From the NCBI GenBank assembly GCA_963739345.1, contig CAVUAA010000001.1, positions 859,749-923,748 of the forward strand: a stretch of DNA of 64,000 nt. Direction: 5' to 3'. The position numbers were made by a program, and so were the translations under genes. Below, piece by piece: positions 31,884 through 34,042 of this stretch. Numbering within the stretch: position 1 is the stretch's first letter; the number at the start of each line of letters is the position of its first letter. Source of the DNA: an uncultured Verrucomicrobiae bacterium (GTDB lineage Bacteria; Chlamydiota; Chlamydiia; Chlamydiales; JAFEGQ01). The notes below the pieces were generated by a model. The model ran no database searches, was not told where the DNA came from, and saw only the letters and a list, made by a program, of their open reading frames with translations.

Positions 31884-32480
31884 GTGGAAAAACGACTACT
31901 CATTTTTGATCTCGGAACCAGTGAACTTGTCGCTGGCGCCTACATCGATGAGGCGCAGGAGAGCATCCTTCGGCTCGACCCGATGAGCGAATGGGAGGCG
32001 TGGCTCGAAGAATTTATCTCCGACCACCTCGCCACCGGACGGTGTACCGGCATCGCCGCAGCTAGTAGCCCTGAGCAGACCACCGCACTGAAAAGCATCG
32101 CCGCTAAACTGGGCCTCGACCTCCAATTCGTCGATCACCCCCCACTCCCAGCAGCCGCCGCCAAGCTCTACCCCGGCCGCGACGCCATCATCGTCCACAT
32201 CAACAGCGAGCTCCACTTCACCGCGATCGGCACTTCCGGGACGAAAGAACACAAAGCGCCCCTCTCCGTCGAGACCATTGAGAAGAGCATCGAGGTCATG
32301 CGACAAGAGCTCGACAATCCCGTCGTCATCGCCACCGGCCATGCCATGAGCGAACTGGCCACCGACGGCTTCAGCGTCCACCTGCGAGAAGCGATCGCCC
32401 ACCTCACCGATGCCATTGAGCCCGAGCTCTCCCTCGTCGGCATCCGCGCAGCACTCAACCAAGGAGAGACTCATGTCTGA
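31884..32480 (+). CDS. hypothetical protein with ASKHA-fold-like (CoaX/Baf-like?) motifs, co-oriented with the groEL paralog
   Basis: [16 protein letters not shown] resembles an ASKHA phosphate-1 motif. [25 protein letters not shown] resembles the type III pantothenate kinase AAxxLYxxPxIVVDFGTATTFD block, but with the key residues replaced. The track start is GTG 31818; I prefer GTG 31884. Its end overlaps the groEL ATG by 8 nt. Confidence 0.45.
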
Positions 32481-34042
32481 TGCCAAAGAAATCCTCTTCG
32501 ATGAAGAGGCGCGCGAGAGACTCCGCTGCGGCATCGACAAACTGGCCGACCTGGTCGCCTGCACGTTAGGTCCAAAAGGACGAAACATCGGACTTGCGAG
32601 CAGTTTCGGCCCACCCACTATTACAAACGACGGCGACAGCATCGTCCGAGACATCGACCTCGTCGACCCCTTCGAAGACATGGGAGTCAAGATGGGGCAG
32701 CGAAGTGGCTAACAAAATCAAAGAGAGCGCAGGCGACGGCACCACCACCGGAACCATCCTCCTCCGCGCCCTCGTCGTCGCCGGCATCCGCTACATCACC
32801 GCCGGCGCCTCACCCATTAATCTCAAACGGGGAATCGAAAAAGCAGTCGCCGCCGTCGTCGCAGAAATTGAAAAAAATGCCACCCCCGTGAAGAGCGACG
32901 ACGACACCCGCAACATCGCCACCGTCTCTGCCTCCGGTGACCGTGAGATCGGCAACACCATCGCGGGCGCCCTCAAACAAGGCTCCGTCGTCACCATCGA
33001 AGAGGGACAAGGGACCGAAACCACCATCGAAGTGGTTGAAGGGATGCAGTTTGACCGGGGCTACCTCAGCTCCTACTTCTGCACCAACTCAGAAACCCTC
33101 ACCGTCGAGATGGAGAACCCCGCCATCCTCCTCGTCGACAAAAAGATCACCTCCATCCAAGAGCTCCTCCCCCTCCTCCAACCGCTTGCCATCACCGGCC
33201 GTGAACTGCTCATCATCGCAAAAGACGTTGAGCCCGATGCCCTCGCCACTCTCGTCGTCAACCGCCTCCGCGGCACCCTCAAAGCCGCCGCCGTCAAAGC
33301 GCCCGGCTTTGGCGATAGACGCAAAGCCATTCTTCAAGACCTCGCCATCCTCACCGGCGCCACCCTCATCTCCGACGAGACCGGCACCCTCCTCAAAGAT
33401 GCAACGCCAGACATACTCGGCTCAGCGGAACGGGTGATCATCGGAAAAGACGAAACCACCCTCGTCAATGGGGGCGGCAACCTCGACGCCCTTGCAGCGC
33501 GCATCTCCCAACTCGACCGCGAAACCGAGCAGGCCACCTCCACCTACGATCGTGAAAAGCTCGAAGAGCGGCGGGCCAAACTCTCTGGCGGCATCGCCGT
33601 CATTCGCATTGGCGCGCAGAGCGAAGTGGAGATGAAGCAGCAAAAACAGATGATGACCGACAGCCTCAGCTCCACTAGAGCTGCCCTAGAATCGGGAATC
33701 GTTGTCGGCGGAGGGGTCGCTCTTCTCCACGCAGCTGAAGCCATCGACCGCCTCCACCTGAACGGCGAAGAGGCCCTTGGGGGCGCCATCGTCAAAAAGG
33801 CGTGCGAAGCGCCCATCCGCCAGCTCGCCAACAACGCCGGCCTCGATGGTTCCATCATCGTCGCCGAAGTGATGGCTGCCACCCCCCACACCGGCTACAA
33901 CGTCCTCACCGATCAGGTCGAAGACCTCTTCAAGGCCGGCGTCCTCGACCCCGCCAAAGTGGTCATTGCCACCCTCACCCACGCCGCCTCCACCGCCGGC
34001 ATGGTCCTCCTCTCAGAAGCGCTCATCACCGACGCCGACTAA
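32473..34042 (+). pseudogene. groEL: GroEL-family chaperonin paralog with a +1 reading-frame break at G-run 32694-32697
   Basis: N-terminus (frame of 32410-32712): [41 protein letters not shown]...[29 protein letters not shown]. The remainder (frame of 32594-34042) continues [25 protein letters not shown]...GGGVALL. Removing one G restores ...DMGVKMGSEVANK..., which is colinear with GroEL. An AAGGAG RBS lies before the ATG at 32473. Confidence 0.85.

Follow-up and report, generated by a model that had tools for sequence, protein, structure and literature searches.

How should a groEL gene be read when it has no groES beside it, is broken by a single base and has its start codon inside a gene of another kind? 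This question is raised by a 64,000-nucleotide (nt) stretch of DNA, hereafter the window, from an uncultured Verrucomicrobiae bacterium placed by GTDB in the Chlamydiales (JAFEGQ01; assembly GCA_963739345.1, contig CAVUAA010000001.1, positions 859,749 to 923,748), in which such a groEL paralogue follows directly on an open reading frame (ORF) of 198 amino acids (aa). A first-pass annotation made from the sequence had proposed for this ORF a catalytically degenerate fold of the ASKHA (acetate and sugar kinase/Hsc70/actin)/CoaX type and a role as a dedicated, non-GroES partner of the chaperonin, and had called for a structure prediction of the ORF and for a check of the gene pair in other Chlamydiae. 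The analysis described here demonstrates that the upstream gene is a truncated, motif-dead descendant of the type III pantothenate kinase (PanK-III) CoaX. Considered as a whole, the locus is likely to represent a two-gene operon composed of a coaX-derived pseudoenzyme and an orphan GroEL, which are probably coupled, with a frame break that is most likely an assembly error; the arrangement is conserved within a single lineage of environmental Chlamydiae. Genes like the orphan GroEL are already known, and what is new is the truncated CoaX pseudoenzyme. The features at the centre of the locus are as follows.

31884..32480, plus strand: pseudo-CoaX, 198 aa (GTG start at 31884, TGA stop at 32478-32480), recognised by profile search, synteny, fold and motif loss
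32463..32480, plus strand: coupling junction GGAGAGACTCATGTCTGA, in which a Shine-Dalgarno (SD)-like GGAGAG and the groEL ATG (32473) lie inside the last upstream codons G-E-T-H-V-stop
32473..34042, plus strand: groEL, split by one extra base at 32694-32699
32473..32698, plus strand: 5' part of groEL (codons 1-75 and the first base of codon 76), from translation and alignment to uninterrupted relatives
32694..32699, plus strand: frame-break site GGGGCA, in which the single extra base is preferably A32699 and alternatively a G of 32694-32697, located by the relatives' codons and the tblastn frame switch
32700..34042, plus strand: 3' part of groEL (last two bases of codon 76 to the stop, under the A32699 repair), free of further lesions, supported by 82-86% identity to loci L081 and L087, key residues and an omega of 0.16-0.19 (omega being the ratio of nonsynonymous to synonymous substitution rates)

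A Truncated Descendant of CoaX

The upstream ORF, for which a length of about 200 aa had been given, is a real gene with homologues. A word-indexed search of 5.8 billion proteins returned the ORF itself and four homologues (58-76% identity), and six independent homologues were found (41-76% identity), four of which have 198 aa, one 203 aa and one, in locus L095, 220 aa. By a HMMER profile search of 1.84 billion representatives, five proteins were recovered in all, belonging only to the upstream-ORF family and to CoaX proteins: the family's own representative, P0126 (220 aa, E = 9e-53), P0127 (258 aa, E = 6.6e-32), P0128 (253 aa) and P0129 (295 aa). The Pfam family PF03309 (Pan_kinase) is matched over its full length by P0127 (127.7 bits) and P0128 (130.1 bits) and partially by P0129 (40.6 bits) and P0126 (26.1 bits), and the 198-aa clade has no Pfam match, PF03309 included; in NCBIfam nothing significant was obtained for the 198-aa ORF, the sole faint match being the type III pantothenate kinase PRK13321 (E = 0.069). 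Solved PanK-III structures are matched by P0127 at E = 1e-23. The 198-aa family alone gave only noise against PDB sequences (HMG-CoA reductase, E = 0.045), and PanK-III was reached only after the intermediates had been added to it. No relatives were found in metagenome contigs by a scan with the CoaX-like alignment.

Genomic position and fold complement the profile evidence. An intact 258-aa CoaX (P0127) occupies the same slot in locus L086, which belongs to a deeper-branching relative and where it overlaps groEL by 17 nt and stands in the same context (HEAT/cyclic-nucleotide-binding gene, X, groEL), and the 220-aa intermediate P0126 fills this slot in L095. The AlphaFold2 model of the 198-aa ORF, which was built from only five sequences, is confident (predicted local distance difference test score, pLDDT, 88.9; predicted TM score 0.81), and a Foldseek search with this model gave PanK-III structures (3djc, 2f9t and 9b78; TM 0.70-0.73) as the best solved structures, the matches coming from Legionella, Pseudomonas (TM 0.73), Thermotoga and Mycobacterium tuberculosis. 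The degenerate ASKHA/CoaX-type fold suspected at first is thus borne out by the profile match to P0127, the shared slot, the Foldseek result and the loss of motifs described below, and what remains of the protein is, as modelled, a minimal two-lobed ASKHA core. Compared with CoaX (PF03309; PDB 3djc, 2f9t, 2gtd), to which it is homologous by profile and synteny, the protein has the same ASKHA fold, and it shares a C-terminal EPELxLxGI motif with the intact CoaX of its clade; it differs in having 198 aa instead of ~250-260 aa and in matching no Pfam or NCBIfam model. Relative to coaX, its ancestor, the first gene has lost ~60 residues, including the pantothenate pocket, together with the catalytic motifs, and has kept a compact ASKHA fold.

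Lost Motifs and Continued Selection

The motifs whose catalytic or binding roles have been assigned in the structural literature on PanK-III are altered or missing in the 198-aa protein, as follows.

PHOSPHATE 1 (DxGN[ST]): DVGNS in P0127; DLGTS in the 198-aa protein, and DLGAG, DLGIG, DLGKR or DVTNG elsewhere in the clade
Catalytic motif: EVGADR in P0127; no GADR in the 198-aa protein, the aligned Asp being N in P0002 and E in P0126
PHOSPHATE 2 (DxGTA): VDIGTA in P0127; HINSE in the 198-aa protein, and DVNSQ, HVNSE, SVDDP or AINDQ elsewhere
Segment from the GGAIAPG region onward (pantothenate-binding segment, located between PHOSPHATE 2 and the helix after it): present in P0127 and P0128; ~60 residues deleted in the 198-aa protein
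ADENOSINE GG: ATGG in P0127; ATGH in the 198-aa protein, with R in P0005 and W in P0126

The deletion of the pocket argues against pantothenate binding by the 198-aa protein as it can be predicted from these alignments. Five sequences nevertheless have exactly 198 codons and no stops, at synonymous divergences (dS) of up to ~1.8, and the omega of the ORF is 0.22 (bootstrap 95% confidence interval 0.14-0.37), with values of 0.10-0.16 for residues 1-85 and 0.27-0.38 for residues 86-190. Neutral decay of the upstream ORF was rejected on account of this omega and of the 198 codons kept without stops. Since purifying selection persists, the protein is, judged from its sequence, a pseudoenzyme and not the product of a decaying gene. 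Among its 198 positions, 76 are invariant, including one clade-specific helix, a version of which the intact L086 CoaX already has (WEQWIETFVSDHLATG); the helix fits a putative clade-specific surface that would predate the loss of catalysis.

The Junction with groEL and Conservation of the Pair

As had been noted at first, the upstream ORF (GTG 31884 to TGA 32480) ends 8 nt inside groEL, whose ATG lies at 32473. The junction GGAGAGACNCATGTCTGA is common to the window and loci L087, L081, L083 and L084; in L085 and L086 the two genes overlap by 14 and 17 nt, and in L095 1 nt separates them, so that a CoaX or CoaX-like gene and groEL abut or overlap in every relative having such an upstream gene. 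No terminator-like site was found between the two genes on the plus strand. The final codons of the upstream gene contain both the start codon of groEL and its ribosome-binding site, and the pair is therefore probably co-transcribed and translationally coupled.

The check for conservation in other Chlamydiae gave a divided answer: the pair is kept in the relatives, but the slot upstream of the orthologous groEL varies elsewhere in the phylum, being taken by nadC (L090), by a 64-65-aa ORF (L089, L091) or by nothing (L093). In L090 the slot holds a gene of a different cofactor pathway, nadC (4109-4978; quinolinate phosphoribosyltransferase), which is separated from the downstream groEL by 22 nt. 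The 64-65-aa ORF, which has no Pfam match, occupies the CoaX-like slot in L089 (7309-7503), L091 (4717-4914) and L092 (149-346), in Protochlamydia phocaeensis and a Parachlamydiaceae metagenome-assembled genome (MAG); its distance to groEL is 86 nt in L091 and L092 and ~500 nt in L089.

The Frame Break and Its Repair

From the ATG at 32473, groEL runs into a zero-frame stop at 32710-32712, the remaining chaperonin being encoded one frame over and ending at TAA 34040-34042; removal of one base yields a GroEL of 522 aa, in agreement with the ~522 aa of the first-pass annotation. High-scoring segment pairs of tblastn change frame at 32694-32699 for all eight full-length reference GroELs (8/8), and no second lesion was detected by this comparison in the 1.35 kb of groEL downstream of the break. 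A GGGG run occupies 32694-32697, and an extra G in this run had been taken as the lesion. That a single extra base is present at the G-run stands; its identity is probably another one. In three relatives the codons at the break are GGG CGG CAG, GGC CGT GAA and GGT CGC GAA, within a stretch that reads KMGR[EQ]VA. Deletion of A32699 (GGGC[A]GCGAA) gives KMGREVAN in one event, while deletion of a G gives KMGSEVAN and requires an R-to-S change in addition. Because the A32699 deletion agrees with the relatives in a single event, the lesion is not necessarily within the G-run, and by these codons an inserted A beside it appears more likely than an extra G.

The same break is found in the public copy of the 1.25-Mb contig at NCBI/ENA, in which the annotated product is an N-truncated protein of 445 aa starting from GTG 32705 (P0008). 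In all relatives groEL is uninterrupted over the length sampled. Pairwise omega values of the repaired gene against relatives (0.16-0.19) are the same as those between pairs of uninterrupted relatives (0.14-0.19), and a three-point decomposition of pairwise distances gave an omega of ~0.18 for the window's own groEL branch. In L085 (627-2090), the GroEL orthologue on a short Logan contig is without ~30 residues (RISQLD...KLSGG) that are present in all others, which could reflect a true deletion or an artefact of assembly.

An Orphan GroEL with an Intact GroES Interface

The repaired protein aligns with PF00118 over the whole length (239.7 bits) and exceeds the curated cutoff of the GroEL model TIGR02348 (662.7 versus 582.1 bits), and a pairwise alignment with Escherichia coli GroEL showed 49% identity. 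The ATPase residues D52, D87, T89-T91 and D398 are all identical to those of E. coli GroEL, and so are the GroES- and substrate-contact residues Y199, Y203, F204, L234, L237, L259, V263 and V264; the residues R197, E386 and R452 of the salt bridges and inter-ring contacts are identical as well, with E461 replaced by D. The Gly-Met C-terminal tail is absent, and the protein ends in ...LITDAD. By its sequence, this GroEL is predicted to be a working chaperonin that should still bind GroES.

The reported lack of groES holds for the whole window: tblastn with E. coli GroES as query gave no GroES (best E = 1.8), and the same query had no match in eight related loci. As a control, it found GroES in 3/3 canonical loci tested individually and in 79/80 canonical groEL loci. 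These 80 loci are the matches of a genome-contig scan with the repaired GroEL, which returned only canonical groESL loci (49-53% identity) and no orthologues, and they were reused as controls for GroES and for coaX adjacency. As the GroES-contact residues are kept, the protein can plausibly use a GroES encoded elsewhere, and the orphan GroEL would most likely work as a normal chaperonin in this way. Because stand-alone groEL genes are carried by 770 of 4,861 genomes (PMC5406781), groEL without groES is an ordinary arrangement. It is known, for example, from bacteria with duplicated chaperonins such as Myxococcus xanthus (PMC5406781), with which the window shares a groEL lacking a neighbouring groES; the overlap of start and stop with a pseudoenzyme gene sets the present locus apart from them.

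The Chlamydial Setting

The chlamydial setting near a mur cluster, as first described, is confirmed by several features. The window (GC content 56%) carries a mur/ftsW/mraY/murF cluster at 9-17.7 kb and a MurC-Ddl fusion, which is a chlamydial hallmark. The closest named GroEL homologues (62-68% identity) belong to Parachlamydiaceae, Protochlamydia, Waddliaceae and "Chlamydiales", and one of them is named "60 kDa chaperonin 3". The gene marking the link to the mur cluster is the following.

16415-17695: murF, 15 kb from groEL

In L086, L089 (Protochlamydia phocaeensis) and L090, the orthologous groEL lies a few kb from murF with TP_methylase between them, and the order of murF, TP_methylase and groEL is the same in the window, which has ~9 kb of additional genes. 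Among Chlamydiae, GroES-less GroEL paralogues have been described as GroEL2 (CT604) and GroEL3 (CT755) (McNally & Fares 2007, PMC1892554), and in Chlamydia trachomatis both were reported to differ in the ATPase and GroES-binding regions (PMC1892554). The second gene of the pair would be an orphan paralogue of the murF-proximal, GroES-less chlamydial lineage, and a positional counterpart of GroEL3. It resembles GroEL2 and GroEL3 in being an extra groEL with no adjacent groES and no Gly-Met tail, is like GroEL3 in its murF-proximal region, where it is syntenic with the murF-linked groEL of L086, L089 and L090, and scores better on the GroEL3 model (NF038369; 313.8 bits, below the cutoff of 600) than on the GroEL2 model (181.8 bits). 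In contrast to GroEL3 of Chlamydiaceae, it is far less diverged and passes the canonical GroEL equivalog cutoff while remaining below that of NF038369; and unlike GroEL2 and GroEL3 of C. trachomatis, it keeps every ATPase and GroES-binding residue.

Origin of the Frame Break

A second gene in the window shows a similar lesion. Phosphoglucomutase (38171-39875, plus strand), 6 kb from groEL, is also split by one base at ~38700 (38695-38705), with PGM_PMM_I in one frame and PGM_PMM_II-IV in the next; in L086 it is a single gene (annotated 558 aa). The repair that fits the relative best removes an A after GC (CAGC[A]GAGGTG), the context in groEL being GGGC[A]GCGAAGTG. Among the ~12 genes comparable with relatives, only groEL and phosphoglucomutase are broken, and no frameshift evidence was found in other apparent overlapping ORF pairs (mraY/murF; hprK and its upstream gene; three ORFs at 19.8-21.5 kb). 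Because two single-base insertions occur in similar contexts in otherwise pristine conserved genes, the break looks like a systematic assembly error. It consists of a single inserted base, which is otherwise a very recent mutation in the strain.

Two other regions are worth recording in this respect. Three consecutive ORFs of 170-220 aa at 19832-21540 (minus strand), just downstream of a 1503-aa ORF, lie each in a different frame and have no Pfam matches; they could be pieces of a single broken gene or small genes in their own right. DEAD-box helicase genes stand in tandem at 41046-42296 and 42466-43878 (both minus strand), and the first of them shares ~140 nt with the 3' end of a convergent ORF of 439 aa (39872-41191, plus strand, no Pfam match), an unusual overlap which might hide a further frame error.

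Alternative Explanations

Several points weigh against the interpretation of the locus as a coupled operon with a break due to assembly. Co-transcription and coupling are deduced from the gene overlap only; the assignment of the chaperonin to the GroEL3 lineage rests on position and a sub-threshold score (313.8 versus 600 bits), not on phylogeny; and two broken genes could also reflect genuine genome decay. If the frameshift were real, the orphan groEL and phosphoglucomutase would be recently inactivated pseudogenes in a genome in reductive decay, as is suggested by the occurrence of the break in the public assembly with its truncated 445-aa annotation, by the most parsimonious groEL repair falling outside any long homopolymer, and by the presence of a second conserved broken gene only 6 kb away. 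This explanation has nevertheless to accommodate an omega on the window's groEL lineage that is indistinguishable from that of uninterrupted relatives, exactly one single-base lesion and no stops in each broken gene, relatives that are all uninterrupted over the length sampled, and a similar GC[A]G context at both lesions, which suggests systematic sequencing error; it is regarded as a minority possibility, and an assembly error in groEL as the probable one on sequence grounds. The dead gene that the first-pass annotation had allowed for thus loses its footing, the omega of groEL not being relaxed and the nearby phosphoglucomutase break itself suggesting an assembly error. Programmed +1 ribosomal frameshifting could in principle bypass the break, as the zero-frame stop (UAA, 32710-32712) lies only four codons past it and a +1 shift would lead to a product of normal length; it is extremely improbable and was rejected, since the break is found in no relative and there is no prfB-like slippery site, GGC UAA giving no cognate re-pairing. 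A split, two-piece GroEL was also considered and rejected. The broken groEL should not be taken as gene loss before the reads are checked.

The role of the upstream protein permits further alternatives. It might be that the ORF is maintained solely because its translation brings ribosomes to the embedded groEL start and that its protein has no function, considering that the SD and ATG of groEL lie inside its 3' end and that the junction is invariant; such an explanation is very improbable in view of the omega of 0.22 over the whole ORF (0.10-0.16 for the N-terminal domain, which is distant from the junction), the 76/198 invariant positions and the confident predicted fold (pLDDT 88.9). Alternatively, pseudo-CoaX may be a partner dedicated to the GroES-less GroEL, as a cofactor, regulator or client-adaptor. 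Relatives with saturated synonymous divergence (dS above 2) still show the start/stop overlap, purifying selection acts on the protein after catalysis was lost, and the clade-specific invariant helix already present in the intact L086 CoaX fits an interface acquired before catalytic loss; moreover, there is a precedent for a CoaX pseudokinase regulating a proteostasis enzyme, and coaX recurs beside groESL elsewhere. However, GroEL keeps every GroES-contact residue, unrelated genes stand upstream of the orthologous groEL in other Chlamydiae, and the whole neighbourhood, not only the pair, is syntenic in the clade, and a dedicated partnership appears improbable. The retained GroES interface weakens the case for a replacement partner, and the dedicated non-GroES partner originally envisaged is disfavoured by it and by the variable upstream slot. 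Both the "dead gene" and the "novel co-chaperone" readings of the pair are unsupported.

A Possible Link of CoaX to Protein Quality Control

Within the preferred interpretation of a pseudoenzyme-GroEL operon, pseudo-CoaX could be expressed together with GroEL and act without catalysis, as a binding or regulatory protein. The analogy is with CoaX of M. tuberculosis, a pseudokinase which binds the depupylase Dop and modulates it (Kahne et al. 2024, PMC11626117; PDB 9b78, 9cku). Both are retained CoaX-derived proteins without kinase activity (as judged from sequence for the chlamydial one) that are tied to protein quality control, and in both the ADENOSINE motif reads ATGH, a Gly being replaced by His: the His of the chlamydial protein aligns with H229 of the M. 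tuberculosis pseudokinase (9b78), which contributes to its absent activity (PMC11626117). On the other hand, M. tuberculosis CoaX has its full length and has retained the binding of pantothenate and ATP-gamma-S, whereas the chlamydial protein has no pocket, and the link of the latter to a proteostasis gene is, unlike that of M. tuberculosis CoaX, genomic only.

A further adjacency was observed among the 80 canonical groES-groEL loci, four of which (two Zixibacteria, one Clostridia MAG and one unclassified) carry an intact coaX (DIGNT/DIGNS) in the orientation of groES and 170-220 nt ahead of it. Because intact coaX adjoins ordinary groES-groEL in unrelated phyla, CoaX is not tied to GroES-less groEL specifically; this recurrence could point to a functional tie, or it could be a common housekeeping adjacency out of which the chlamydial arrangement developed. 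The coaX genes concerned are found at L002 4651-5478, L009 4681-5439, L064 4570-5352 and L061 4739-5515, and in L064 and L002 the ORF preceding coaX has, by eye, a helix-turn-helix-like N-terminus reminiscent of BirA. Taken together, coaX upstream of groES-groEL in Zixibacteria and Clostridia, the CoaX-Dop pair of M. tuberculosis and the overlapped coaX-like/groEL pair point towards a possible link between CoaX and protein quality control. It is a speculation of low probability that the CoaX-derived pseudoenzyme is a lineage-specific partner or regulator of GroEL and that the CoaX family more broadly takes part in a recurrent, unrecognised link of this kind.

Neighbouring Features

Besides the pair, the following features were distinguished.

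28673..31840, minus strand: large membrane protein combining HEAT repeats with a cyclic-nucleotide-binding domain at its C-terminus (Pfam cNMP_binding, HEAT_2), divergent neighbour
34170..34355, minus strand: conserved acidic ORF of 61 aa, convergent to groEL, called with 61-62 aa in L081, L087, L095 and L090
34039..34167, no strand assigned: near-perfect palindrome of 129 nt with 53-nt arms (87% complementary; dG -86 kcal/mol, z = -13)

The HEAT/cyclic-nucleotide-binding gene, which is in one frame and 73-86% identical to its counterparts in L081 and L087, is kept beside the pair in L081, L087, L095 and L086, that is, in all relatives with CoaX or a CoaX-like protein and enough upstream sequence. 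Because this gene, the convergent 61-aa ORF and a Metallophos gene are conserved alongside, synteny is not specific to the pair. In the window, L081, L087 and L095, the acidic ORF (L081 5366-5554, L087 5345-5533, L095 7344-7529, L090 8655-8843) and groEL converge directly on each other, and in L090 two genes lie between them. The palindrome, a single copy in the window, fills the whole gap between the convergent stops of groEL and the 61-aa ORF; L081 and L087, in which the genes overlap or are separated by 30 nt, do not have it, and no exact copies were found in metagenome contigs. Probably it serves as a bidirectional terminator hairpin or represents a palindromic element that was inserted.

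Implications

According to a review citing Yang et al. 2006, Chlamydiae are without all three types of pantothenate kinase (PMC12570885). With coaX found intact, as a 220-aa intermediate and as a dead form of 198 aa, always in the same slot, these loci offer a stepwise record of the loss of an enzyme and the re-use of its gene. The chlamydial protein would be a second and more extreme CoaX pseudoenzyme besides that of M. tuberculosis, again adjoining a proteostasis gene, and pseudo-CoaX provides a concrete and testable candidate for a companion of the GroES-less chlamydial GroEL.

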